Source: Candidatus Micrarchaeota archaeon (GTDB lineage: Archaea > Micrarchaeota > Micrarchaeia > Micrarchaeales > CABMGC01). Taken from it: a stretch of DNA of 64,000 nt. The stretch lies in NCBI GenBank assembly GCA_027365175.1, contig DAHXNY010000003.1:24634-88633 (forward strand), in the 5' to 3' direction. How positions within the stretch are numbered: the first letter of the stretch is position 1; each line of letters opens with the position of its first letter. Both the position numbers and the translations under genes were made by a program. The notes below the pieces were generated by a model. It was not told the origin of the DNA and did not search any database. It saw only the letters and a program-made list of their open reading frames with translations. Below are positions 2,178 through 16,841 of this stretch, piece by piece.

Positions 2178-4295
2178 ATGAAGATAATTGAGCTGCAGGG
2201 GAAGCTCCCTGAAGAGGTCCTTGAGTCGTTTAGGAAGCGGGGGATAGCTGAGCTTACCCCTCCGCAGGCGCTGGCAGTAGAGTATGGACTTCTTGAAGGA
2301 AAGGACTTCGTGGTAGCTGCGCCTACGGCAAGCGGCAAGACGCTGATAGCTGAGATGGCAATGCTCAGGAGCGTGATGCGCGGGAGGAAGAAGGCGATAT
2401 ATGTGGCGCCCATGCGAGCGCTTGTGAGCGAGAAGTACCATGAGTTCAAGGAGGCGTATCCTGGAATAAAGGTTGCCATGTCCATAGGCGACCTGGATTC
2501 GCTTGACAGCTGGCTTCACGAGTATCAGATAATATTGGCTTCCACGGAAAAGCTCGACAGCCTGATAAGGCACGGGGCGGAGTGGCTTGACACTGTAGGC
2601 TGCATAGTCTTTGACGAGGTGCATATGCTTGATGATTCTACAAGGGGGCCTACGCTGGAGATCCTTATGACAAGGCTGAAGAGAGTTGCAAAGGATTCGC
2701 AGATAGTGGCGCTGAGTGCGACTGTGGGGAATGCCAGGGAGCTCGCGGAGTGGCTCGGGAGCGAGCTGATAGAGAGCGATTACAGGCCTGTAGAGCTCAG
2801 GAAGGGCATAGAGCAGAACGGAACCATCTATTATGCTGATGGGGAAGAGGCGGTTGATAACGGCAGCAAGCTTGCCGAGATAAGGATAGCTGCGAATACC
2901 TTTGGTATGCATAAGCAGATACTCCTCTTCTACAGCACAAAGAGGAATACAGAGGCTGGTGCGGAGAGACTCTCCCTTCTCACTTCATCTGTGCTCAGCC
3001 AGGAGGAGAAGCTTAAGCTCAGCGAGGTCTCTGCGCGCATATTAGGGGCTCTTGGAAGGCCTACGACGCAGTGCGAGAAGCTCGCAAGGTTCGTTGAGAA
3101 AGGAGTTGCCTTCCATCATAGCGGGCTGGTGAACGAGCAGAGGCACGCCGTTGAGGAAGCATTCAAGGAAGGGCTGATAAAGGCGATATGCTCCACCACC
3201 ACTCTGGGCATGGGAGTAAACCTTCCCGCACATACAGTAGTTGTAAGAGATACCGTAAGATACGATGCGGAATATGGAAGCGTGCGCATGGGCGTCAATG
3301 TCGTAACGCAGTTGTTCGGCAGAGCGGGCCGCCCGAAGTATGACAGGATGGGCAGAGCCCTGCTCATAGCTAAATCCAAGGAGGATATGCGCAGCTTGTA
3401 CGAGAGATACATTGACGGGGAATTGGAGCCGGTGGAATCGAAGCTTGGGATGGAGAGCGTTCTGAGGACGCACCTTCTCTCCTTCATAGCGACTAAATTC
3501 CTCACAAGCAAAGAGTCGATATCTGATTTCATGGCAGGCACCTTCTACGGCTACCAGTATGCGGACATGAATGACCTGAACAGGATAATAGGCAGGGTTC
3601 TGAAGGAGCTGCAGGAGTGGAACTTCATAGAGAGCTATGGGAGCTTGTACAGGGCGACGAAAGTAGGCGAGCGCGTAAGCGAGCTGTACATAGATCCTAT
3701 GTCTGGCAAGTGGATGATTGACTCACTACCTAAGGCAAAGGACAGCATATCCATATTATTCATGATCTCCAATACGATAGAGATGCGGCCTTATGTCAAG
3801 ATAGTTGAGGAGGCGGAGGAACGGTTCTTCGGTTACCAGCAGATGATAGAGAGCGAAGGAGGATACATACTCTCCGAGGACATAGGCTATTATGATCCGC
3901 TTAAGCCTTTTTCGACGTCGATAATGCTGAACGACTGGATAAGCGAGAAGCATGAACAGGAGATAACGCAGAAGTACGGGACGACTCCCGGGGCCCTTTA
4001 TACAAAGATAAACAATGCGGACTGGCTGCTATACTCAGCGTCTGAACTGGGAAAGCTTCTCAAGGTGAGCTCCAGGAAGCTGACAGAGGTGAGGGTGAGG
4101 ATGAGGTATGGAATAAAGGAGGAGTTGATGGACCTCGTAAGGCTTGAGGGAATAGGAAGGGTCAGGGCGCGTCTTCTGTTCATGAATGGAATTCCAGACG
4201 TTAAAAGCCTCAGGAAAGCTGGCGCGAAGGAGAAGGTGGAGAGGCTTCTTGGCAGGGAAATCGCAAAAAGAGTGTACGAACAGCTCAGCGAGTAG
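2178..4295 (+). CDS. hel308: Hel308/Ski2-like SF2 DNA helicase
   Basis: APTASGKT, DEVH, LSAT, QLFGRAGRP, C-terminal GIGRVRAR. Confidence 0.93.
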   Translation: MKIIELQGKLPEEVLESFRKRGIAELTPPQALAVEYGLLEGKDFVVAAPTASGKTLIAEMAMLRSVMRGRKKAIYVAPMRALVSEKYHEFKEAYPGIKVAMSIGDLDSLDSWLHEYQIILASTEKLDSLIRHGAEWLDTVGCIVFDEVHMLDDSTRGPTLEILMTRLKRVAKDSQIVALSATVGNARELAEWLGSELIESDYRPVELRKGIEQNGTIYYADGEEAVDNGSKLAEIRIAANTFGMHKQILLFYSTKRNTEAGAERLSLLTSSVLSQEEKLKLSEVSARILGALGRPTTQCEKLARFVEKGVAFHHSGLVNEQRHAVEEAFKEGLIKAICSTTTLGMGVNLPAHTVVVRDTVRYDAEYGSVRMGVNVVTQLFGRAGRPKYDRMGRALLIAKSKEDMRSLYERYIDGELEPVESKLGMESVLRTHLLSFIATKFLTSKESISDFMAGTFYGYQYADMNDLNRIIGRVLKELQEWNFIESYGSLYRATKVGERVSELYIDPMSGKWMIDSLPKAKDSISILFMISNTIEMRPYVKIVEEAEERFFGYQQMIESEGGYILSEDIGYYDPLKPFSTSIMLNDWISEKHEQEITQKYGTTPGALYTKINNADWLLYSASELGKLLKVSSRKLTEVRVRMRYGIKEELMDLVRLEGIGRVRARLLFMNGIPDVKSLRKAGAKEKVERLLGREIAKRVYEQLSE

Positions 4296-4762: not shown

Positions 4763-5452
4763 TCACTTCTTCAGGGCGGTTATAAGCGCGTGCACCTCAG
4801 TGCCGCTTGGCTGCGAAGCGCGTACCATTCTCCGGAATACTGCGCTCACAGCCTTTTTGTTTCTTATCCTTTTCTTTTCAAGAGAGCTATCGAAGATTCT
4901 GAACAGGTACTCCAGCTCCTTCTTCTCCACCTTCCTGTTTGATATGTCCCTGTACAAGGGGACGAAGTCCTGTTTTGTGAACTCATAGAGTATCAGGGCA
5001 AGGGCGTGAGAGATGTTTAGCACAGGATATCTCTTAGAAGTGCCTATGTACATCACCATGTCGCATCCTTCCACCTCCTCTGCGCTTAGCCCGGTGTCAT
5101 CCCTCCCTATCAGCACGCCTATTACCGCTTTTTCATCGAGCTTCTTCAGCTTTGCAGCGGAGTCCTGAAGGAGAAGGATGCGCTTGAAGGTGCGGTTTGC
5201 CTTCTCCCATATCCCTGTCGTCCCTATCACCAGGGAGCACTCCTTTGTAGCCTCTTCTATGCTATCGTATACCTTTGCATTCTTCAGCAGATGGCTTGCG
5301 TGCTTTGAGAACATTATCGCCTTGCTTCCCGTAATCTTTGCCCTTGGCTTTACGAAGTATAGCTTGTTTATCCCGAAGTTCATCGACACTCTTGCTATAT
5401 AACCGATGTTTATCTGGTACTTCGGCTCTACGAGTATTATCTTGAAGCGCAT
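4763..5452 (-). CDS. trmJ: SPOUT RNA methyltransferase, TrmJ/LasT family
   Basis: ILVEPKYQINIGYIAR, IGRDDTGLS, YPVLNISHA; likely start MRFKIIL. Confidence 0.85.
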   Translation of the reverse strand: MRFKIILVEPKYQINIGYIARVSMNFGINKLYFVKPRAKITGSKAIMFSKHASHLLKNAKVYDSIEEATKECSLVIGTTGIWEKANRTFKRILLLQDSAAKLKKLDEKAVIGVLIGRDDTGLSAEEVEGCDMVMYIGTSKRYPVLNISHALALILYEFTKQDFVPLYRDISNRKVEKKELEYLFRIFDSSLEKKRIRNKKAVSAVFRRMVRASQPSGTEVHALITALKK

Positions 5453-5457
5453 CTTTA

Positions 5458-6225
5458 TCAGTGGATTAGGATTATACTTAGTATGGCAAGGACGCCTATG
5501 GAGTTGACAAGGATATGGGCGAGCATGCTCGGATACAATGAATCGGATTCGCTGAACACATATCCTGCAATCAGTCCGAAGAGCGTCGCAGCCACTACCT
5601 CTATTGCAAAGGTTGAGTCGTAGCTCGCATGAAGCAGCCCGAAGACCACTGCACTTGCCACTATGCCTGCCCATACGGGTCTGTAGCTCCTTTTAAGCAG
5701 TGATGAGCCTATGGCCCCTGTGCCTATGTTTATCCTTTTTATGAGGAAGCCCCTGAAGAATATCTCCTCGTTTATAGGCTCTATGACTGCGACGAATATG
5801 TAGAACCATAACGGAGCTCCTGTGAAGAGCACGCCGGTGTTTGTGTTTATGGCGGTATTCAGGAAGTTACCAAAGGCGCCTACCGCAACCTCAAGCATAA
5901 GTATTATGATGAATAATAGCATTCCTATCCACAGCACATTTACTGATATCCTGTCCTTTGACAGTCCCAGGAAGCCCAGCGTCTCCTTCAGGCTCTCCCT
6001 CTTGTAGAGCTTCCCGTATAGGAATACGGCTACAGACAGGGATAGCAATGAGGCCACTTCAAGGATAAATGTCAGGGTATTGTTTGATATCAGGCCGACC
6101 GAGTATGCACCGTATGAGATAAGGCTGAGCACGCTGATGGATACGATATACAGCGCAAAATATATTGCTATTGAGAAGATAGAACGTCCTGATTCCTGCC
6201 GCAGGTTATATCCCAAAAGGCGCAC
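5458..6225 (-). CDS. CPBP (CAAX/Abi) family intramembrane metalloprotease
   Basis: EEIFFRG, FGLLH, AHILVN motifs and multiple TM segments. Confidence 0.9.
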   Translation of the reverse strand: MRLLGYNLRQESGRSIFSIAIYFALYIVSISVLSLISYGAYSVGLISNNTLTFILEVASLLSLSVAVFLYGKLYKRESLKETLGFLGLSKDRISVNVLWIGMLLFIIILMLEVAVGAFGNFLNTAINTNTGVLFTGAPLWFYIFVAVIEPINEEIFFRGFLIKRINIGTGAIGSSLLKRSYRPVWAGIVASAVVFGLLHASYDSTFAIEVVAATLFGLIAGYVFSESDSLYPSMLAHILVNSIGVLAILSIILIH

Positions 6226-6363
6226 CTATTTGCCCTTGAACTCGGTGTATCTGCACTTGCCGCACGCATATCTGTCCTTGTGGTCGGCCATGCGGGCACC
6301 GCACTTGGGGCAGTACTTCGCCCCCGGTTTGTATACAGCTGCCTTCTTTCCCTCTTTTGCCAT
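6226..6363 (-). CDS. rps27ae: 30S ribosomal protein S27ae (eS31), 45 aa, absent from ORF track
   Basis: [45 protein letters not shown]; directly follows S24e as in the conserved order. Confidence 0.92.
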
Positions 6364-6379
6364 GTTAATCATCTAAAAA

Positions 6380-6733
6380 TCATTCAGCCCCTTCTGCCTT
6401 TTCAGCAGGCTTGGCTTCTTCTGCCGCTTCCTGCTTTGCAGGCGCTGCTCCTTTTGCAAGTGCCTCCTTCTTCTTTGCAGAGAGCTTGAATGCCCCTCTC
6501 TTCTTTGCCTCAGGAGTAAGGTATGCATATGCGGTTATTGTGCATCTCTTCTGTCCGTAATCCTGGTCGACGCTCACTATCTCTACCATCTCAGGATCAA
6601 GATTCTTCTTCTTGCATAGCTCCTCCTTGACCTGCTGCCGTGTGGGCGTTTTGTCCTTGAAGGTTGCTTCTGCCTTTATCTCATTCCTTTCAAACAGCTT
6701 GTTTTCGTGCTCTTTCTCTATTTTCAATTCCAT
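6380..6733 (-). CDS. rps24e: 30S ribosomal protein S24e
   Basis: ENKLFERNEI...TPTR...YG motifs; Ala/Lys/Glu-rich tail. Confidence 0.88.
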   Translation of the reverse strand: MELKIEKEHENKLFERNEIKAEATFKDKTPTRQQVKEELCKKKNLDPEMVEIVSVDQDYGQKRCTITAYAYLTPEAKKRGAFKLSAKKKEALAKGAAPAKQEAAEEAKPAEKAEGAE

Positions 6734-7138
6734 CTAACCGCCCATTACTCTTGATATAGCTCTTCTTCCTGACGCTTCCATTATCTCTATCTCCGCCCCT
6801 GCCTTGACGCTGCCCTTCATGTCCTCAGGTATCGGCAGGTCGAAGGTCTCATAGCTCTCCAGGTCCATAACCTGCGCAGTTGTGTCTGTAACTGATACAA
6901 TCTGTCCTTTCTTCTTTGTTATTACAGGTACCTCTATGTCTCCGGAGCTCGGCTTCAGAAGGGTCTTCTTCTGCCCATCGAAGATGCCTATGCCCGTTAT
7001 TCGCATCTTTGCAGCTCCGTGCTTTCCAGGTGCAGAGGTCTCTATGTCTACCACCCTGCACGCTATACCGTCTATCATGACGAAGCGACCTATCTTTAGG
7101 TCCTTCATAGTTCCATAAGTTATTTCGTCTGTCACCAA
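6734..7138 (-). CDS. eif5a: Translation factor aIF5A
   Basis: SAPGKHGAAK hypusine loop. Confidence 0.96.
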   Translation of the reverse strand: MVTDEITYGTMKDLKIGRFVMIDGIACRVVDIETSAPGKHGAAKMRITGIGIFDGQKKTLLKPSSGDIEVPVITKKKGQIVSVTDTTAQVMDLESYETFDLPIPEDMKGSVKAGAEIEIMEASGRRAISRVMGG

Positions 7139-7219
7139 ACCAGCTTCTCAAAAGTTTTACTGATAAAACAAGTAAACCTGTTTTCCATAGGAGTATTAAC
7201 TAAGAAAAATTTATAAATA
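7094..7219 (+). repeat. Left copy of perfect 126-bp direct repeat (aIF5A 5' codons plus upstream region)
   Basis: Identical to 10318-10443 (CTTTAGGTCCTTCATAG...AATTTATAAATA). Confidence 0.97.
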
Positions 7220-7309
7220 GGGATACATGAACGCATGTGAGAGCCAGAAACTTATAAGTATCATGTAAAACAATTATGTAATGCAGATTTAATAACCAAG
7301 TATGATAAA

Positions 7310-8020
7310 ATGACAAAGTATAAAACAGGAGAAGTTCTTGGAATAATTCCTACGCGAGGAGGTTCTAAAGGGTTGGAAAACAAGAATGTCAGATTTCTAG
7401 ACGGAAAACCGTTAATAGCTTATACTATCGAAGCGGCTCGGGATTGCAAGGATATTGCAAAATTGGTCGTATCTACAGATAACAATACGATAGAGGAAGT
7501 TTCAAAGAAATATAATGTTGATGTATTTAGACATCCTCATGAGTTATCGTTAGATGGCAAGCCCACATTTCCTGTTATACAATATGTTGTAAAGAATTTA
7601 GTTGAGTCCGGAGAAAAGTTTGAACTTGTAGCTGTCATGCGTGCAACTACTCCTCTTAGGACATCTGAAGATATATCCAAGGCAATAACATTGCTTCGCA
7701 AAACTGGAGCAGATTCTGTAGTAAGCGTGGTTGCCGACCCAACTGCACATCCTATAAGACTTAAAAACCTTGATAGAGATTTAAGAGTATCATCGTTACA
7801 GAGTGGTGAAGAGGATTCTCCGATAATCCGTCAGAATCTCCCAGTAGTTTATAGACGTAATGGGGGAGTTTATGTAACAAGAGTTTCCATTATTTTAAAT
7901 GGCAGTTTATTTGGCAAAGACTCTAGAGGATATGTAATGCCTAAAGAGAGATCGGTTAATATTAATGATGAGGTAGATTTTGTATTAGCTGATGCGTTGT
8001 TGAAATCGCATCACAAATAA
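7310..8020 (+). CDS. Acylneuraminate (NeuA/CMAS-type) cytidylyltransferase
   Basis: IIPTRGGSKGLENKN, GKPLIAYTI, VSTD, TTPLR, INDEVDF. Confidence 0.92.
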   Translation: MTKYKTGEVLGIIPTRGGSKGLENKNVRFLDGKPLIAYTIEAARDCKDIAKLVVSTDNNTIEEVSKKYNVDVFRHPHELSLDGKPTFPVIQYVVKNLVESGEKFELVAVMRATTPLRTSEDISKAITLLRKTGADSVVSVVADPTAHPIRLKNLDRDLRVSSLQSGEEDSPIIRQNLPVVYRRNGGVYVTRVSIILNGSLFGKDSRGYVMPKERSVNINDEVDFVLADALLKSHHK

Positions 8021-8049
8021 GTTAATATTAGTAAAGCATAGGCAGCAAC

Positions 8050-8634
8050 ATGGTAGTAAAAATATTATTGCTTGATATTGGAGGGATTTTCTTTTACCCG
8101 AATTGGCGAATAAAAGGCATAAGAGAAGTTAGCGATAAGCTGCATGTTGGCTTAAATGATTTCAAAGCAGCTTTGGACGCGTATAAAAAACCTTTTTATA
8201 CAGGAAATATGACCGAGGATATATATTGGACAAACATACTTGAAAGGCTAAATGTCTACAGTGTGAAGCCAGATGACCTTGTGAATTTATATAGAGATTA
8301 TGTAAAACCAATTCCGGAAGCTATAAACCTGCTGCCCAAATTGTCTTCGAGATACAAATTGATATCTTTTAATAATTCCTCGAGAGAATGGATGGATTAT
8401 AGAATAAATGTTGCTTCTTTGGATAAATATTTTTCAGAGTTTTTCACGTCAGGATATCTTGGCTATACAAAATCAGATAACAGGATGTATGAAAAGGCTA
8501 TACTATCTTATAATAAAGATGAATTATTTTATTTGGATGATAATGAAGAGTATATATCAAAAGCAAAAACAATATGCGGAATAAATGGTAAAGTGTATTT
8601 GAATAACACTGATCTCCTGCAATTAATAGCGTAA
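8050..8634 (+). CDS. HAD-superfamily phosphatase (YihX-like)
   Basis: LLDIGGIF motif I, GYTK motif III, YLDDN motif IV. Confidence 0.85.
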   Translation: MVVKILLLDIGGIFFYPNWRIKGIREVSDKLHVGLNDFKAALDAYKKPFYTGNMTEDIYWTNILERLNVYSVKPDDLVNLYRDYVKPIPEAINLLPKLSSRYKLISFNNSSREWMDYRINVASLDKYFSEFFTSGYLGYTKSDNRMYEKAILSYNKDELFYLDDNEEYISKAKTICGINGKVYLNNTDLLQLIA

Positions 8635-10152
8635 AACTGGTGGAAATGGGGGTCTTCTTGAATTGCCTTTTACTGATAGTTCATTGACAATTTGTGCAGA
8701 TATGCCAGGTGTGCGGAAAGCAGTAAAGAATCCGTTTGCCACATCAGGCGAAAGTTCCAGAGAATGAAATAGTACTGATGCCCCGAAGTCAGTATTTGCA
8801 CCTAAGCTTGGTCTTGTTTTTCTTATGGCTTTTGCATATTCAATTAGTCTATGTATAGTTTCATATTTTTCTGGAAATCCATCCATACTGGCTTTTATAT
8901 ATAAATCTACTCGTGGGTCTTTGCCTAACAGTCGGGTAGGATTTTCTGGATTAGTTTTGTGAATTCCATGTCCAAAACCATAAATTACTTTGCCGGGTTT
9001 AACTAAATTTCTGATGTATGCTTCTCTGTCACTTTTCCTTTCCATTGTCAGATATTCTTTCGTTTGTTTCATACATTCGGTTACTGCTCCAGCGTGGAGT
9101 TTGCCACTCCGTATATTAAAACTGGCGATAAGGGCTCTTGGGAAGGTAGTTCTCACTGATGAAGCTAATTGTGCAGTCAATTCTCCAGAATTTAGACCAT
9201 GTGTTGAGTGTGCTAATGCTACTTTCCTAACTGCAGAAAGTTGCCTCTCTGTAACTTTCTTACCTGCTTGATGAAGAAACATCTTAATTGGATCGATAGT
9301 TTCGTTCAGGTTCACTAGTTTAGATGGATTGTTAAAATATGCTACTGTTGAAATGATGAAGCCCGTAAAATAATACGCGTCCATTATGACCTTTCTTCTA
9401 CTTAGTAAGTTTTCTCCAGCAATTGCATTGGTGTTATATTCATATTTACTGAGACTCTCATACTTGTTTAAAATTTGTCTATTTAAAAGCTGTTGTGTAA
9501 TAAGATCTACAATCTCCCAATTTTCTTGCTTTGCACGAGAGATTAGTTCCCTTTCTCTTTCTTCTAAAATTGCCCCTCGCTGGAAAGAAACTTCTGCATC
9601 GGATTTAAACCTCTCGTCTTTTTCTAAGAAGAGCTTCAGAGTAGCAGAAAAATAATTATTTTGGCTTGAAAATCTCTTTAATGACATTCCTGCGATTGTT
9701 ATGCGTCCATCTAGTATATGTGATTGTCCTGAATGTGGATAACTCGGCGATCTGAATTTAAAGATTTTTAATACGTCATTAACACCGTCTCTTGCAGAAC
9801 TTACCTCATTGATAACTGATGCGAAGACGTGTTCTTTTCCTAACTCGTTAAGCCTTGCGTTTATGGGTTTTAGAAGCGCCGTAGTTCTTTCTGAAAATAC
9901 TTTGAGAGAGTGATTGCTGTTAAATAAGTTTATAAAGTCCGTTTTTAACTTAGCCATTTTTGGATCTGACAGTACCCCGGTGTCATTTAATTTTGAGGCA
10001 ATATTATTATAGGAATTTAAAACTACATGCTTCCAGATTATCTCCTCTGGATCATGGTAGACATCAGGCTTTCTTTGCAAAGCTAAAAAAGGCTGTGCTC
10101 CTGTAGAATTTTCTGAGTTATTAGTTTTTATCCGACATATTTTGTTTCGCAT
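8623..10152 (-). CDS. Divergent citrate-synthase-fold protein with long unrecognised N-terminal region
   Basis: HSTHGLNS, LHAGA, YGFGH, DPR, NTDF, FRTPG motifs in the C-terminal half. Confidence 0.8.
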   Translation of the reverse strand: MRNKICRIKTNNSENSTGAQPFLALQRKPDVYHDPEEIIWKHVVLNSYNNIASKLNDTGVLSDPKMAKLKTDFINLFNSNHSLKVFSERTTALLKPINARLNELGKEHVFASVINEVSSARDGVNDVLKIFKFRSPSYPHSGQSHILDGRITIAGMSLKRFSSQNNYFSATLKLFLEKDERFKSDAEVSFQRGAILEERERELISRAKQENWEIVDLITQQLLNRQILNKYESLSKYEYNTNAIAGENLLSRRKVIMDAYYFTGFIISTVAYFNNPSKLVNLNETIDPIKMFLHQAGKKVTERQLSAVRKVALAHSTHGLNSGELTAQLASSVRTTFPRALIASFNIRSGKLHAGAVTECMKQTKEYLTMERKSDREAYIRNLVKPGKVIYGFGHGIHKTNPENPTRLLGKDPRVDLYIKASMDGFPEKYETIHRLIEYAKAIRKTRPSLGANTDFGASVLFHSLELSPDVANGFFTAFRTPGISAQIVNELSVKGNSRRPPFPPVLRY

Positions 10153-10317
10153 TTTAACAATTATAGTAACTTGTAGAGAAATATAAGACCTTGCCGCAAG
10201 ATTTATAAATACGAATTGTGTCTCTGATCTTCAGTATCGTTTGTTAATGCACTTAGAATAAAGTATAAAGAGACGCTAATAACAGCAGAACTATATTAAA
10301 CAAACTAATCGGCCTAC

Positions 10318-10443
10318 CTTTAGGTCCTTCATAGTTCCATAAGTTATTTCGTCTGTCACCAAACCAGCTTCTCAAAAGTTTTACTGATAAAACAAGTAAA
10401 CCTGTTTTCCATAGGAGTATTAACTAAGAAAAATTTATAAATA
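10318..10443 (+). repeat. Right copy of 126-bp direct repeat; contains a truncated aIF5A 5' fragment
   Basis: Minus strand reads MVTDEITYGTMKDLKVGRLVCLI-stop. Confidence 0.97.
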
Positions 10444-10447
10444 CAGT

Positions 10448-10472
10448 TAACAGGCCCTATCTGGGCCTGTTA
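10448..10472 (-). terminator. Hairpin downstream of the ftsZ pair
   Basis: TAACAGGCCC-tatct-GGGCCTGTTA, perfect 10-bp stem. Confidence 0.65.
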
Positions 10473-10490
10473 CGTTAAAATTAAATAATT

Positions 10491-11510
10491 TCAGTAGATG
10501 CTCTGGAGCGCCTCTAAGCGCATAGGCATAGCATTTGCATTGCTCTTGCGTTCGCCGAACTTCGCCTTCACTCCTGTAATTATTGACATTACCCTTATCT
10601 CCTCTCCGAGCTCAGGAAGCATCCTTGCGCCGAAGATGACGTTCGCATCTCCTGCAACGCCTTCTGTAACGCCGTTTGCTATCTCCGTAGCCTCGCTTAT
10701 GGTCAGGTTTGCACCTCCGGTTATCTGTATGAGCGCTCCCTTTGCACCTTCATTCTCCACTGATAGCAGAGGATGTGCAAGAGTTGACTTTACAGCCTGT
10801 TCGACTCTGCCAGGGCCCTTTCCTGAGCCGAGGCTTATCACTGCCGTGCCTGTGTTCCTGACAACCGTGTTCAGATCTGCGAAGTCCAGGTTTATCAGGC
10901 TTGGGAAGTATATCGTGTCAGATATTCCCTTTACGGCATTGCCGGTTATATTGTCAACAAACTCGAAGGCCTTGTCCATAGGAAGGTTTGGCACATATGA
11001 TAGGAGCTTGTCGTTCTCCACCACTATCGTGCAGTCCGCTTCCTTGTTCAGCCTGTCTATGCCCCACTCTGCCTTTACCTTTCTGCTTCTCTCAAGTGCA
11101 AATGGGTATGTCACAGTTGCTATCACTGTTGCGCCGCACTCTCTTGCTATGTGAGCCACTATTGGAGCTGAACCTGTTCCTGTTCCTCCTCCCATGCCAG
11201 CAGCTACGAAGACCAGGCTGTAGCCGTCTAGGGCCTGCCTTATCTCCTCCTTGCTTACCTCTGCGCATTTCTCAGCAACTTCTGGGAAACCTCCGGCTCC
11301 GAGTCCATTGGTTATGCTCTTTCCTATGAGCAGCTTCTTGTCGGCCTTGATTATGTTCAGATGTGCTATATCCGTGTTTATGGCAATCTTGTCGGCGCTC
11401 TGCATGCCGTATCTTGATAGTCTGTTTACAAGGTTGCTACCCTGCCCACCGCAGCCTACTACCGCTATCTTCGGTTTATAGGCATCATAGTCGAACTGCT
11501 CGTTTCCCAT
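10491..11510 (-). CDS. ftsZ: Cell division protein FtsZ (FtsZ2-like)
   Basis: [28 protein letters not shown]. Confidence 0.95.
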   Translation of the reverse strand: MGNEQFDYDAYKPKIAVVGCGGQGSNLVNRLSRYGMQSADKIAINTDIAHLNIIKADKKLLIGKSITNGLGAGGFPEVAEKCAEVSKEEIRQALDGYSLVFVAAGMGGGTGTGSAPIVAHIARECGATVIATVTYPFALERSRKVKAEWGIDRLNKEADCTIVVENDKLLSYVPNLPMDKAFEFVDNITGNAVKGISDTIYFPSLINLDFADLNTVVRNTGTAVISLGSGKGPGRVEQAVKSTLAHPLLSVENEGAKGALIQITGGANLTISEATEIANGVTEGVAGDANVIFGARMLPELGEEIRVMSIITGVKAKFGERKSNANAMPMRLEALQSIY

Positions 11511-11544
11511 TCTTGCACCCACTTATAATAAATATAAAGGGATC

Positions 11545-12594
11545 TCAAATGAGATCCAAGTCATACTTTGCAGGCTTTTCGTCGCTGTTGAACTTCCCGG
11601 CTATGCTTGCGCCCTTTACTCCTGTGACTATTGCCACTATCTCTATCTGGCCCTCGTAGCCTGGGATTATTCTTGCGCCCCACTTTATGTTTGCCTTAGG
11701 GTCCATGCGCTCCGTGATTATTTCACCTGCGTGTATTGCGTCTCCGAGGCTCAGGTCCGATGCTCCTGATATGTGTATCAGTGCCCCCTTTGCATTCTCG
11801 AAGTCAACATCAAGCAGCTTGTTCTTTATCACGGCCTCTGCAGCTGCGGTAACCTTCTCGTTGCCCTTTCCTACCCCTACGGATATGAATCCAACGTCTC
11901 CGCTGCCCATGATTGACCTTACATCAGCAAAGTCTATGTTGATCAGGCTCGGCTGGGTTATCGTCCATACGAGTCCTCCTATGGCCTTTGCCAGTATGTC
12001 ATCTGCTACTGCAAATGCCTCATTCATTGGCAGGTTAGGAACCAGCTTCACCAGCCTGTTGTTGTCCAGGATTATGACGCTGTCGCTGAACTTCCTCAGC
12101 TTCTGAATACCCTCTTCTGCCTTTACCTTCCTTACCCTCTCAAGATCAAATGGGTATGTTACCATCGCGACTACTATAGCACCCTGTTCCTTTGCTATCT
12201 GAGCCACTACCGGCATCGCACCTGTTCCCGTTCCTCCTCCCATACCTGCGCACAGGAAGACCAGTTGTGCACCGTTTATTACCTCTTCTATTGCCTGCCT
12301 GTCAGCCTCTGCTGCCTTTGCTCCGACTTCAGGAGTTCCTCCGGCTCCGAGACCTCTTGTCAGGCTCTTTCCGATGAGGACCTTCTTTATCCGGTCATCA
12401 AGCATCTTGAAGTGCTGAACGTCCGTGTTAATTGCTACAAGGTCTGTGCCCTTAACACCGCTCTTCAGCAGTCTTTGTGCTGTGTTGTTGCCACCCCCGC
12501 CCACTCCTATGGTTACTATCTTTATCTGGGGTGTAGAGTTACTGTCCATCTCCTCGCTTTTATTCGCAAGAAACTCGCTAGAGAAATCTACCAT
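11545..12594 (-). CDS. ftsZ: Cell division protein FtsZ (FtsZ2-like)
   Basis: [31 protein letters not shown]. Confidence 0.96.
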
Positions 12595-12799
12595 GCGATC
12601 GCCAGTTTATATAAACTACTAAATACGTTTAAATGTCTTTTGTATGGGAGTCAGTAATGGAACGGCTTATACTTTGATAAAAATCATATACTTAAATAAA
12701 TTATTATTAGTGGAAGATAAGGATTTTTACGCAGAATCCGTACCGTAATGGGAATGAAAAACAAATTTTACCGACGTTAATTGCAATTTGGGATTAGTA

Positions 12800-14560
12800 T
12801 CAGGCTGATAGCTTGGACTTCCGCTGTATGCCGAACATCTCTATTACCTCTTCTGTCGTCGTGGCATCGGAAGCGCTCTTGTCCTGCCTTATCCCATCGC
12901 TCACGAGCCTTGGGAATCTCAGGGCATATCCTATTCCGTCCTTTACCCCGCAGGTGTGCATGTTCGACCTTGTTATCTCGTCTGCCCTTACAGTTACTAC
13001 GTACTTCGGCTCGACCCAGAAGTCAGGCTCCACCACAGCGTTTACCCTTGCAGGCCTGTGCTTTGTCTTTATCTCATCAAGATCCTTCTTCAGCGATTTC
13101 ATCTGCACCTCGCTGAATCCTGTGCCTATTCGCGTTATGGTTTCAAAGGCATCCTCTTTGTCATTGTAAACGCCTGCTAGGAGACCGCCGAATTTGAACT
13201 CGGCGCGCAGCCCTTTTCCTAGGAAGTATCCCAGTATCACGAGGTCAAGCGTGTCTGACAGTTCTCCCTTGTAGCTCCTCTTCAGCTTTATCCAGGAGAA
13301 CTTCCTCGCGCCTGCCACATAGCTTGAGCCGAGGTCCTTTGCCATTATGCCCTCGAGACCGTCCTCTATTACCGTATTGAAGTACTTGTCTATCGTCTTG
13401 GGATCGTCAGTGACTATCCTGTCGGAGAGTCGTATCATGCGCCTTTTCTTCAGCACGGATTCAAGCAGGTTCCTCCTCTCCGAGTAGGGCTTTGCCATCG
13501 TATCCCTGCCGTTAAGATACATTATGTCGAATGAGAAGAGGGTCAGGGGCATCTCCTTTGACATCTCCTCTACTCCATGCTTCCTCTTCCTCTGTATGGT
13601 CTCCTGGAAAGGGAGGAACTGGTCCGTGGCTTCGTTGTATCCTATTGCCTCTCCCTCTATTATTGCAGAGTCTGCCGATATCTCATCGAGTGCGGCGTCG
13701 ACTATTTCCGGGAACATGGGAGTAAGCACCTCCAGGTTCCTCGAGTATATCTCAACCTTCTTCCTCTTCCTATCCACATGTATCTGCTGCCTTAATCCGT
13801 CGTACTTTGATTCTATGGCGCACCTTCCATGGGTCTTTTCCAGTATCTGCTCCGCAGTAGGAAGCCTCTCGGCAAGTGCGGGCCTTATAGGACTGAAGAG
13901 CTGCACCTCTATGCGCTCTATCCCTTTTATCCCATTCTCGGCCATGATCTCACCTATCCTCCCGAGGTCGCTGCAGATGTTGTATGCGTTCTCCAGCACA
14001 GGCTTTGACTCCCTGCTTCCGGTGAATGCCTTGGAAAGCGCTTCGAGAATGGTTGCATCGCCAAGGCCCAGCCTGAGCCTTCCGAGGGCGAATCTGGTAA
14101 CGTATCTTGCTTCGAGAGGAGAGGAGGCTGAAAGAATCTCCATCAGCATCTTTATCTTCGTGTCCTGGCTGCCCTGCCCTCCGGTCTTCGCTATCTTGTG
14201 CATCGATTCGAAGACATCGTTTACTGTAAAGGACTTGGAACTTATCCTCTTCAGCTTTGACTTAGAACAGAAATCCTCTGCCACTGCCCCAAGGTCTCCT
14301 GATTTCTTGTATGCCTGTATGACGGAATCTTTTGAATAGCCGGTAGCTGCAGCTATGGCCTGCTCGGCGAAGCTCTCAGCCAGCCCTATCACTACGCCCT
14401 CGAATGAAGGACTGAGAACTCCCTGCGTTATGTATATCAGGTGCCGAATCTCTCCGGGGGAGGATTTTGACAAAAGCTCCGAGAGCGTGTCTATCATCTC
14501 CAGCCTTGAGCTTGTGCCCTCGAGCTTCTCGTAATAAGCGGCAGTGTCCTTGAACAGCAT
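12800..14560 (-). CDS. lig: ATP-dependent DNA ligase
   Basis: ESKYDGLR, EGIMAK, WIKLK, ALRFPR; likely start MLFKDTA at 14560. Confidence 0.96.
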   Translation of the reverse strand: MLFKDTAAYYEKLEGTSSRLEMIDTLSELLSKSSPGEIRHLIYITQGVLSPSFEGVVIGLAESFAEQAIAAATGYSKDSVIQAYKKSGDLGAVAEDFCSKSKLKRISSKSFTVNDVFESMHKIAKTGGQGSQDTKIKMLMEILSASSPLEARYVTRFALGRLRLGLGDATILEALSKAFTGSRESKPVLENAYNICSDLGRIGEIMAENGIKGIERIEVQLFSPIRPALAERLPTAEQILEKTHGRCAIESKYDGLRQQIHVDRKRKKVEIYSRNLEVLTPMFPEIVDAALDEISADSAIIEGEAIGYNEATDQFLPFQETIQRKRKHGVEEMSKEMPLTLFSFDIMYLNGRDTMAKPYSERRNLLESVLKKRRMIRLSDRIVTDDPKTIDKYFNTVIEDGLEGIMAKDLGSSYVAGARKFSWIKLKRSYKGELSDTLDLVILGYFLGKGLRAEFKFGGLLAGVYNDKEDAFETITRIGTGFSEVQMKSLKKDLDEIKTKHRPARVNAVVEPDFWVEPKYVVTVRADEITRSNMHTCGVKDGIGYALRFPRLVSDGIRQDKSASDATTTEEVIEMFGIQRKSKLSA

Positions 14561-14963: not shown

Positions 14964-16106
14964 TTACTCTTCGTTTATTATCTCATATATCTTATTGGCG
15001 AAGAAGCCCATGTTGCGCTCCTTCTTCTCTGGCACAAGTATGCCCTGCTTGACAAGCCTGTCCACTGCGCGTTTTGCAGTAGGGTATGTCGCGTTGATCG
15101 CATTCCTTGCATCTGCTATGGTTATGAATGGGTTCTTGAAGAGCTCATTCAGCACTATTCTTGATGACTCTGAGGATTTTGAAGGGCCGAGCTTTTTCAT
15201 GCACGCTTCCCTGTACTCGGAGAGCTTTGAAGCGGTGCGCACGGCCTTCTTGGCCTGGAAGTGCATAGCCTTAAGGAAGAACTTTATCCATGCCAGATAG
15301 TCGCCTGTCTTGCTTACGTGCAGTATCGTGTCGTAGTAGGATGCCCTGTCCCTCTCGAAGTACTCGCTCATGCATAGGCTGGGAAGCGAGAGGAGCCTGC
15401 TCTTCTGCAGATACACGGATATGAGCGCTCTTCCGGTCCTTCCGTTTGCATGCTCGAAGGGCCTTATGGCCTCGAACTGGTAGTGCATAATTGCTATCTG
15501 GACTATCGGATGCACCGACTCATACTCCTGCATATAGTAAAGCGCGTTCTCCAGCAATGGCACTATTCTCTCCGGAGGCGGGGGCACGTATCTTGCTATA
15601 GCGGCCGGGGTATCTGGAGAACCAAGCCAGTTCTGCCTATTCCTTATTATCATATCCTTTTCATTTGTGCTGCCCGTAAGTGCCTTGTGGGCTCCGATTA
15701 CCGTATTCATGCTTATGTCCCCGCGGCTTATCGCCGGTATGCAGCTCCTCAGAGCCTCTATATGGCCAATGGCCTCTTTTGCAGCCTTGGGATCCTTTAT
15801 CGAGCGTTTTCCCCGCTCATACCTGAAGATATTGTCCAGGGTCTCCCGGTTTCCATGCAGCCTTGCATTCTCCAGCGCCTCCTTTCTTGTCTGCAGTTCT
15901 GCAAATTCCGGGAATTCAGAGGATATTGCCTCGAGCTTCCCCAACTCGAAGCTTGTCTTTGCCAGAAGAGTTGTCGCCTCATCGTCAAATTTGATCTGCA
16001 CAGGGAGCAGCCTCGGTACAAAGGCGTAGTAGTTGTTGTGTGCATTCTGTACGAATATGAGCTCTCCTGCCATACCATTGAAATCGCTGGGATTCACCAC
16101 AGGCAC
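14964..16106 (-). CDS. Fic family protein with C-terminal HTH and a degenerate active site
   Basis: IRNRQNWLG, HYQFEAIRPFEHANGRTGR versus canonical HPFxDGNGR. Confidence 0.88.
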   Translation of the reverse strand: MPVVNPSDFNGMAGELIFVQNAHNNYYAFVPRLLPVQIKFDDEATTLLAKTSFELGKLEAISSEFPEFAELQTRKEALENARLHGNRETLDNIFRYERGKRSIKDPKAAKEAIGHIEALRSCIPAISRGDISMNTVIGAHKALTGSTNEKDMIIRNRQNWLGSPDTPAAIARYVPPPPERIVPLLENALYYMQEYESVHPIVQIAIMHYQFEAIRPFEHANGRTGRALISVYLQKSRLLSLPSLCMSEYFERDRASYYDTILHVSKTGDYLAWIKFFLKAMHFQAKKAVRTASKLSEYREACMKKLGPSKSSESSRIVLNELFKNPFITIADARNAINATYPTAKRAVDRLVKQGILVPEKKERNMGFFANKIYEIINEE

Positions 16107-16575
16107 CGATTATTATATTAAAAGAATATATTTAAACCTTTACTAAATCAATATTTATCACAATATTAATCTGCAATAACGTATTGGAACTAAATATAAA
16201 CACAATAAACATACTATAACTGACTACATACGATTATTATAGATAAATTAAGTTTTTATTAAATTAATCTCATTTATAATTAATATAATGTAATTTTATT
16301 TGTTTTTACCCGCTTTTGTAGATTTTTTACTTAATATATTATAAATATATTGAAGATAATCGCATATATCACATTATTTCGATCTGAAGAAGCAGTGTTT
16401 CAATTGTTCGAATATAATTAAAGAAATATTGTTTATAATTAATATAAATTAATAATCAACATTTGATTGATATTTTGATAGTTTATGTTAAATTATATGT
16501 GTATTAATTTAATATTACTCTGATACGCAGCTCGCACCTGGCTGTGTGGGACATGAGGTCTCTGGTGCGAATTAG

Positions 16576-16643
16576 GTGACATCCTCCCACCCCTGAAGGG
16601 AGCCATCTAAAGAGGGTGTGGGATTTCCCGCTCACGTTGTTAA
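16576..16643 (-). mobile_element. Solo IS200/IS605-type right-end remnant
   Basis: Minus strand GTGAGCGGGAAATCCCACACCCT...AGGGGTGGGAGGATGTCAC; hairpin resembles the tnpB element ends at 60325 and 61580. Confidence 0.6.
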
Positions 16644-16841
16644 TAGCAAATATATTAATTATATTGCTGATTTTTGTAGATATATAGCACTTTTTGATTT
16701 ATTATATTAAATAATTAATCATTATATTTAATACAAACAATGAATCTAATTGAATTGCAGAGAACATAGAAGCAGGAGACATAAACGTAAAGATATAGCA
16801 TTGGGATTGGCAGTTTAGGATGGCTTATGAAGCGCGCCTGA

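Follow-up and report, generated by a model that had tools for sequence, protein, structure and literature searches.

A candidate recombinase-less gene cassette bordered by two copies of the aIF5A promoter and start in a Micrarchaeota genome

The aIF5A-ftsZ locus and its three-gene island

The DNA analysed here (the window, a stretch of 64,000 bp covering C23:24634-88633, contig DAHXNY010000003.1 of GenBank assembly GCA_027365175.1) belongs to a metagenome-assembled genome (MAG, G000) of a Candidatus Micrarchaeota archaeon, which was recovered from a metagenome as 29 contigs with a total of 795,159 bases, a completeness of 89.4% and a contamination of 0.4%. Between the gene for aIF5A and its native right-hand neighbour ftsZ, the window contains an AT-rich island of three genes, which is bordered on both sides by the same segment of DNA, namely the promoter and the first codons of aIF5A.

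This segment forms an exact direct repeat of 126 bp (7094-7219 and 10318-10443, 126 of 126 positions identical), on which the alignment of the two copies and a string comparison agree, as they do with an earlier note on this DNA that had described a perfect duplication of the first 15 aIF5A codons and the promoter. The exact match is bordered by a mismatch on either side (7093 T versus 10317 C, and 7220 G versus 10444 C), the copies are spaced 3,224 bp from start to start, and an origin of such a repeat by chance cannot be entertained. A repeat search of positions 5000-13000 returned a single long direct-repeat family, 140 nt in length and 97% identical (7080-7219 and 10304-10443), and the entire 795-kb MAG holds two copies of the repeat, both at this locus. 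Read on the minus strand, the repeat is composed of the aIF5A start (TTG/GTG) with 15 codons and of the upstream region as far as a TATA-like box, which lies at the outer end.

The near copy (7094-7219, attL-like) supplies codons 1-15, the leader and the promoter of the intact aIF5A gene (6734-7138, minus strand, 134 codons from the TTG at 7138; Pfam IF5A-like_N, 5e-16), and beyond codon 15 it reads K-I-G-R-F-V and continues into the real gene. The far copy (10318-10443, attR-like) duplicates promoter, leader and 15 codons in an orientation directed at the third island gene, and also showed up in G000 as a second, weak match to aIF5A containing one TAG. Beyond codon 15 it reads K-V-G-R-L-V-C-L-I and then meets a stop, the whole being an aIF5A-derived remnant frame of 23 codons ending in TAG (10291-10362, minus strand). 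At its other side, the far copy runs into the 3' flank of ftsZ exactly as in relatives.

The DNA between the copies has a G+C content of 0.356, compared with 0.49-0.50 in the flanks and 0.30 in the repeat itself, and is filled by three open reading frames (ORFs), none of which matched a recombinase, transposase or replication gene in Pfam. An AT-rich interval of about 3.1 kb free of recombinase and transposase genes, as the earlier note had it, is what we find. Among the five pairs of inverted repeats listed by the repeat search, none lies at the island ends. A transposon or insertion sequence was considered and set aside, given that there is no transposase, that no terminal inverted repeats were listed, and that the duplication measures 126-140 bp. 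The MAG as a whole has one match to the tyrosine recombinase family PF00589, located on contig C27 and not on the contig of the island.

The first island gene (7310-8020, plus strand) encodes a cytidylyltransferase of 236 aa resembling CMP-NeuAc synthetases and PseF (Pfam CTP_transf_3, 2.9e-22), whose nearest solved relatives are CMP-NeuAc synthetases (PDB 6ifd, 1.9e-31) and whose score against the NCBIfam PseF model (118.8 bits) is under the cut-off of 205.7. The second (8050-8634, plus strand) encodes a HAD-like hydrolase of 194 aa, which stays just under the threshold of each family it resembles (Pfam Hydrolase, 24.6 bits versus a cut-off of 26.4; HAD_2, 22.4 versus 23.8; NCBIfam HAD-IA, 21.9 versus 23.3) and whose homologues, 38-53% identical, occupy the same place in the other cassettes discussed below. 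The third, convergent gene (8623-10152, minus strand) encodes a citrate-synthase-like enzyme (CSL) of 509 aa with an N-terminal extension of about 190 aa. Its residues 193-499 match Pfam Citrate_synt (7.1e-24; 84.9 bits versus a cut-off of 27), all NCBIfam citrate synthase models are far below their cut-offs, and it is about 25% identical to the housekeeping citrate synthase of the same genome (contig C24). The CSL family is rare, with 35 proteins found in a search of 5.8 billion proteins and a best identity of 58%, and the homologue stored in a protein atlas led to generic citrate-synthase clusters only. Two histidines and one aspartate in conserved motifs are invariant across 23 family members and are putatively the catalytic residues of citrate synthase.

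The succession of a condensing enzyme, a phosphatase and a CMP-transferase is the logic of the KDO and sialic-acid pathways, and from this pathway logic we conjecture that a CMP-activated compound, acidic and sugar-like, may be the product of the module and may serve to decorate the surface. A protein of 735 aa (P0015) carries Citrate_synt and CTP_transf_3 in one chain and is a natural fusion of two of the cassette genes, which argues that CSL and the cytidylyltransferase work in one pathway. A role of the cargo in defence was also considered and dropped, since PADLOC returned two marginal hits for the cytidylyltransferase (E values of 0.011 and 0.023) and none for the HAD-like protein or CSL.

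The island has two non-coding ends. The left one (7220-7309, plus strand, 5' of the cytidylyltransferase gene) is without homology to the empty site of relatives, and the right one (10153-10303, minus strand, 5' of CSL) contains a TATA-like box, read from the sequence, that has an 11-nt string in common with the TATA box of the repeat. Neither end folds into a stable hairpin when compared with shuffled sequences (z of 0.14 and 0.25 on the left, 0.99 and 1.17 on the right), and positions 6500-11000 of the window gave no Rfam match.

The genes on either side of the island belong to the host. To the left, aIF5A is followed by genes for S24e, S27a and an Rce1-like protease. To the right lie two tandem ftsZ genes, the first of which (10491-11522, minus strand; Pfam Tubulin and FtsZ_C) is identified as the native neighbour by synteny; the second paralogue (11545-12594, minus strand) likewise has both Tubulin and FtsZ_C domains, and the tandem arrangement is kept in the relatives examined. 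Further along the window, positions 16001-16750 are very AT-rich (G+C of 0.25-0.26, compared with a window mean of 0.47).

Empty sites, a foreign allele edge and island depth

The six genomes of the same genus all have aIF5A and ftsZ as immediate neighbours, and in each the 140-bp segment is present as a single copy. Positions 6000-7219 and 10304-11860 of the window align to adjoining, overlapping parts of each congener's locus, and since all six congeners show this empty site, the block between them is an insertion, as the earlier note had proposed. More widely, the gap between ftsZ and aIF5A measures 94-251 nt and is free of cargo at 17 of the 19 loci of relatives (16 of 18 when locus L020, from the unpublished genome G038, is left aside), while at the two exceptional loci (genomes G020 and G017) unrelated larger genes, and no cassette, lie upstream of aIF5A. 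The suggestion that the ftsZ-aIF5A junction is a site of cassette exchange was not borne out: none of the 19 loci holds a cassette. Among 401 genomes sampled from the phylum, CSL was found in one, G000 itself (E values up to 1e-25), and in the 40 nearest relatives the housekeeping citrate synthase alone matched CSL. Among the genomes searched, this acquisition of the cargo stands alone.

Over the first 20 codons of aIF5A, the two copies of the repeat differ at five places. Codon 16 differs at its first position (ATA in the near copy, GTA in the far copy), and codons 17-20 differ at the third position only (GGT/GGC, CGC/CGA, TTC/TTA and GTC/GTT). The six congeners read GTA GGT CGC TT(C/T) GT(C/G/A) or close variants at these codons. 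The near, functional copy (codons 16-20 at 7080-7093, minus strand) is of host type and ancestral at all four third positions, being derived only by the T at 7093, which gives ATA (Ile) where six of six congeners have GTA (Val). The far, non-functional copy (10304-10317, minus strand) is derived at all four. A dead fragment keeps no reading frame, yet the four successive changes all fall on third positions, so that, as judged from these five codons, the far copy derives its inner edge from a functional aIF5A allele of another lineage, in which it evolved as part of a working gene. We also rejected a fresh duplication of the target with later neutral decay, given the outgroup polarity of the same four changes. 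The far copy is therefore a mosaic, 14 nt of foreign-allele sequence being followed by 126 nt identical to the host, and the proposal that one copy came from a related donor applies to part of it, namely the third positions of codons 17-20, which are derived with respect to six congeners.

The position of this edge, on the island side of the copy detached from the gene, matches a single crossover of the Campbell type. Foreign-allele sequence is thus located where such a crossover would leave DNA of the element, which is consistent with the Campbell-type insertion put forward earlier.

The repeat itself is conserved beyond the genes that surround it. It is identical at 126 of 126 positions in one congener (G002) and at 125 of 126 in two others (G001 and G003), the loci of the three being L004-L006, while the body of aIF5A is about 90% and ftsZ about 92% identical between the same three congeners and the window; in a comparison of 3.4 kb with G002, the repeat region contains the longest exact run (128 nt), the next being 68 nt. 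This conservation may reflect a constrained promoter and leader or an exchange of the segment between species. Since the repeat is near-identical in several species, a circle carrying it would have a perfect recombination partner in each. The aIF5A orthologues of the six congeners are 89-96% identical, and the N-terminal extension of the protein is kept in relatives through synonymous changes.

One public run that contains the stretch (X1) is a mine-drainage metagenome, which is probably the source sample and hence not an independent one. Two further runs of that study (X2 and X3) gave no contig on the stretch, which does not speak for its absence there. Depths were taken as the mean k-mer depth of each Logan contig (k=31), a quantity that does not measure the share of cells. 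The flanks have depths of 21.1 (6000-7123) and 23.1 (from 10414), the four contigs of the island have depths of 4.8, 4.2, 4.2 and 6.1, which is 4-5 times below the flanks, and the repeat forms a 126-nt contig of its own at a depth of 23.1; the contigs break at all four repeat edges, as a collapsed repeat should. The island is probably not in every genome, because its depth would then equal that of the flanks and the repeat would be found at about twice the flank depth. AT bias was rejected as the cause of the low island depth, since the repeat is more AT-rich than the island (0.30 versus 0.356) and yet stands at flank depth. We infer that at least roughly three quarters of the genomes in this sample have the empty site, and the 4-5-fold difference fits the empty sites that the earlier note had predicted. 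The k=31 graph agrees equally with an island integrated in a sub-population and with a free circle of 3,224 bp.

The same module and its flanking repeats in other phyla

A scan of metagenomes with the single CSL sequence gave no relative; a profile scan then did. At nine of the 32 CSL loci tested, which lie on eight distinct contigs, CSL is accompanied by the cytidylyltransferase and the HAD-like gene in the same convergent order as in the window (L033, on the contig of L064, and L034, L039, L063, L065, L066, L071 and L084). The hosts are Paceibacterota (L033), Kerfeldbacteria (L039), one gammaproteobacterial MAG (L034) and unnamed metagenome contigs, and the identities to the three proteins across these loci are 60-69%, 38-53% and 38-63%. 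The remaining 23 loci have CSL alone, several of them on short contigs. No CSL relative was found in viral contigs, plasmids or phages, and no integrase is encoded in or beside the cassette at any locus read. After the closest CSL relative available as DNA (L079:3-3397; 58% in the C-terminal part) come an AMP-binding enzyme and an ORF of 410 aa for a transporter-like membrane protein, which replace the HAD-like and cytidylyltransferase genes, so the CSL family works also in another small-molecule context.

Two Paceibacterota loci, L033 and L065, have orthologous neighbourhoods composed of an ABC transporter, a toxin-antitoxin pair, the cassette and a histidine kinase. The module lies there between the real histidine-kinase gene's 3' end and a second, displaced version of the last 41-42 codons, which has a stop of its own, and the spacers between the module and the kinase-end copies are about 14 nt long. 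The two kinase ends are 77% (L033) and 88% (L065) identical. Their differences fall on codon positions 1, 2 and 3 in the numbers 3/4/22 and 1/4/10, respectively, and synonymous codons make up 19 of the 23 that differ at L033 and 9 of the 12 at L065 (for L065, one codon outside the repeat is included in these numbers). Since the differences are mostly at third positions and synonymous, both kinase ends evolved as coding sequence, and since the flanking repeats have diverged, the integration in Paceibacterota is no assembly ambiguity. The toxin-antitoxin pairs in the slot beside the cassette are different ones (L033:5226-5749 versus L065:5192-5967), one being of the HicA type and the other of the PemK/MazF type.

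At L071, from a G+C-rich bacterium, the cassette is located between copies of 87-112 nt (84-93% identical) of a G+C-rich intergenic repeat, of which a third, partial copy is found at 3966-4004 with a hairpin just before it; this locus gave no Rfam match. The CSL gene of L071 is interrupted by a DDE transposase gene (L071:5842-7182; DDE_Tnp_1_4, 1.3e-149). In the gammaproteobacterial MAG, the cassette lies between thrS and infC-rplT-pheS, normally a tight housekeeping cluster, and is without a flanking repeat (L034:4160-11038). At L039, an exact direct repeat of 15 nt is present at the cassette edges (L039:5982-5996 and 8685-8699), the first copy covering the CSL start codon; with an E value of 0.007 in a small search it may be due to chance, and it was not counted as support. 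Locus L066 is cut.

The same cargo therefore occurs between long, host-derived direct repeats in three settings that are unrelated to one another (the window, Paceibacterota and L071), and the sequence of the repeat is a different one each time. Because the repeat sequence differs with the context, recombination through carried host sequence fits these observations better than an integrase with a fixed site.

Integration models and relation to known elements

We favour, with slightly better than even confidence, the interpretation that the 3,224-bp unit is a repeat-flanked, circularizable cassette without a recombinase, of the kind known from unconventional circularizable structures (UCS) and from the microcin H47 island, which integrated in Campbell fashion. 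The unit would consist of a foreign three-gene module of 3.1 kb plus one segment with the aIF5A promoter and 5' end. In the circular form, this segment would lie between the divergent starts of the cytidylyltransferase and CSL genes, having been captured earlier at the aIF5A locus of another archaeon. One reciprocal exchange between the circle and the chromosomal aIF5A 5' region would then integrate the unit by a single crossover, with host recombination functions acting on it, since the unit encodes none. This would leave aIF5A intact behind one copy, with its promoter kept from the TATA box inward, and would direct the second promoter copy into the island, where CSL follows in the same orientation after the 23-codon remnant. 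The reverse exchange would remove the unit and restore the empty site, which would explain the apparent presence of the island in a minority of genomes. The mosaic far copy could result from more than one round of recombination, from integration and excision crossovers at different points, or from gene conversion between the copies. The circular intermediate, the host-mediated recombination, a current mobility of the unit and the use of either promoter (the TATA box of the repeat or that of CSL itself) are what this interpretation predicts from the arrangement of the locus.

Several points weigh against it. The integrated arrangement rests on one MAG contig, with no spanning read and with k=31 contigs that break at the repeat, and the exact repeat length, 126, is also the value of k-1 in an assembly made at k=127. 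The depths are per-contig means from the probable source sample and do not give a share of cells. For the window, the donor allele is deduced from five codons, and the cassette is found in none of 400 other genomes of the phylum, so that no archaeal donor for the 14-nt edge was seen. Strong constraint on promoter and leader may be all that lies behind the near-identity of the repeat in three congeners. Outside the archaeon, the kinase fragment in Paceibacterota could have been left behind when a paralogous kinase gene was deleted, and long flanking repeats were found neither at L034 and L063, which have none, nor at L039, which has the 15-nt repeat only.

A wider interpretation, which we regard as possible but clearly more tentative, is that a circle of about 3 kb with this three-gene module moves across domains, among DPANN-sized archaea and bacteria of the candidate phyla radiation (CPR), its sole determinant of mobility being a borrowed host gene end that serves as a handle for homologous recombination. 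In the archaeon, this handle would be the aIF5A promoter with the 5' end of the gene; in Paceibacterota, it would be a histidine-kinase 3' end. Such a cassette would leave its target gene unbroken, would place host transcription signals beside its cargo, and could pass from one related species to another wherever the handle is shared; the 99-100% identity of the repeat in three congeners might then be a footprint of this traffic and not of promoter constraint alone.

Among the alternatives, the one that survives best, although we consider it unlikely, is a non-autonomous or degraded site-specific element similar to a cis-mobilizable element (CIME), whose repeats would be the att sites of an integrase encoded elsewhere, either by an unbinned or helper element or by the host (Xer-type), and which would bring along a replacement gene end in the manner of islands that target tRNA genes or gene ends. 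A direct repeat of a gene end with one foreign-allele edge is indeed the classic picture of a replacement gene end. The kinase-end copies of L033 share short identical runs only, the longest of which reads about 14 nt and lies at the inner boundary; an identity of this length is probably too short for RecA-type recombination and would be suitable as a core site. Furthermore, with the MAG 89% complete a helper element could be missing from it, and one tyrosine recombinase is present. Against this, the same cargo is framed by three unrelated repeats in three hosts (the aIF5A 5' end, the kinase 3' end and an intergenic repeat), where a fixed specificity predicts otherwise, no integrase was seen in or beside the cassette at the loci read, and the single recombinase of G000, which is matched in size by housekeeping Xer proteins, is located on a different contig.

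An artefact is improbable in our view, although it has arguments of its own: the contig could be a chimera in which the assembler joined, via the 126 bp, an island-free chromosome and a free circle of 3,224 bp with one repeat copy. The four-way junction in the k=31 graph fits this solution as well as integration, the island depth is 4-5 times under that of the flanks, the repeat length is 127 minus 1, and the MAG was assembled as 29 contigs from a metagenome. The circle would, however, be without a replication gene, and its 126 host-identical bp next to a foreign aIF5A fragment would themselves imply a past integration and excision. Moreover, relatives of the cassette are unambiguously integrated where their repeats have diverged, and none was found on plasmids, phages or viral contigs. 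Since three metabolic genes fill the unit and none of them is a replication gene, its long-term survival as a free circle is unlikely, and we think that integration in part of the population is likelier than a purely free circle.

The last alternative, a one-off illegitimate insertion that duplicated its target through staggered-break repair or a template switch and is now a static scar, is very improbable: the sharp outer boundary of the repeat and the lack of a recombinase would suit it, and long target duplications can come from repair synthesis, but a fresh duplication gives identical copies that are sharp on both sides, in place of inner 14 nt with four derived third-position changes that neutral decay of a non-functional copy does not yield, the island depth far under that of the flanks suggests that the site is polymorphic, and in other phyla this cargo is again framed by repeats.

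The favoured interpretation, a circularizable cassette without a recombinase, has two described precedents, both bacterial. The microcin H47 genomic island of Escherichia coli is described as a 13-kb region without a recombinase gene, flanked by extensive, imperfect direct repeats with four blocks of homology, which excises as a circle and re-integrates with host-supplied, RecA-independent functions, its mobility having been shown by PCR (PMC5426353). The island of the window resembles it, as far as that description goes, in being small, in lacking a recombinase and in its long flanking direct repeats, and differs in its archaeal host, in its size of 3.2 kb, in a repeat that consists of the promoter and start of an essential gene, and in that its mobility is only inferred. 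UCS (Palmieri et al. 2013, as described in PMC7843796) are antibiotic-resistance regions of bacteria with direct repeats of more than 100 bp and no recombinase, from which a circle loops out with one repeat copy while the other stays behind, and whose repeats often contain whole genes. With UCS, as characterized there, the window shares the long direct repeats and the absence of a recombinase, while its repeat is a partial gene plus promoter and has one foreign-allele edge. Of the features that define these two kinds of element, long direct repeats and a unit free of recombinase and transposase genes are present in the window.

The locus also has features of islands that target gene ends. Islands in tRNA genes and prophage e14 in icd bring their own integrase and a replacement gene end, and mostly 3' ends are targeted. 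The window shares with them the gene-end repeat, a diverged, codon-aware copy on the element's side and a target that is kept intact; unlike them, it has no integrase in 7220-10317, and it is the 5' end with the promoter that is duplicated. As regards the features expected of an integrative element, the diverged, element-borne end of the target gene is thus present, and a tyrosine or serine recombinase of its own was not found in 7220-10317.

Neisseria minimal mobile elements consist of cargo between conserved housekeeping genes that is exchanged by homologous recombination without a recombinase; this model predicts alternative cargos at the junction, unlike what is seen here, where 17 of 19 junctions of relatives are empty. 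Integron cassettes are a further point of comparison. The attC site is an imperfect palindrome of about 57-141 nt, and insertion into an integron is not known to duplicate more than 100 bp of the target. The ends of the window's island differ in having no attC-like hairpin (by folding and Rfam), and the 14-nt spacers of L033 and L065 leave no room for one; an integron integrase was sought through PF00589 alone, with the one MAG match on contig C27. The resemblance to integron cassettes lies in the small, promoter-poor cargo without a recombinase of its own, in the circle as the form in which it is thought to move, and in the occurrence in both Bacteria and Archaea, for which archaeal integrons have been proposed as platforms of cross-domain transfer (PMC9668308).

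To these known kinds of element the locus adds the duplicated 5' end and promoter of an essential gene, a depth difference within one sample that points to polymorphism, and a cargo that is shared between two domains and has other host gene ends around it in each.

In DPANN archaea and CPR bacteria, genomes are very small and classical mobile elements few, and little is understood of the ways in which these organisms gain genes. In the present case a foreign metabolic module, whose pairing of a citrate-synthase-like enzyme with a sialic-acid-type CMP-transferase is itself uncharacterised, appears to be polymorphic within one natural population and is framed by the promoter and start of an essential gene. 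If occupied, empty and circular forms coexist as proposed, an archaeal symbiont would allow a direct test of gene gain and loss by host recombination alone, an essential gene would be seen to offer its promoter and 5' end as an integration handle, and the cassette would provide a marker, defined by its cargo, for tracing transfer between Bacteria and Archaea.

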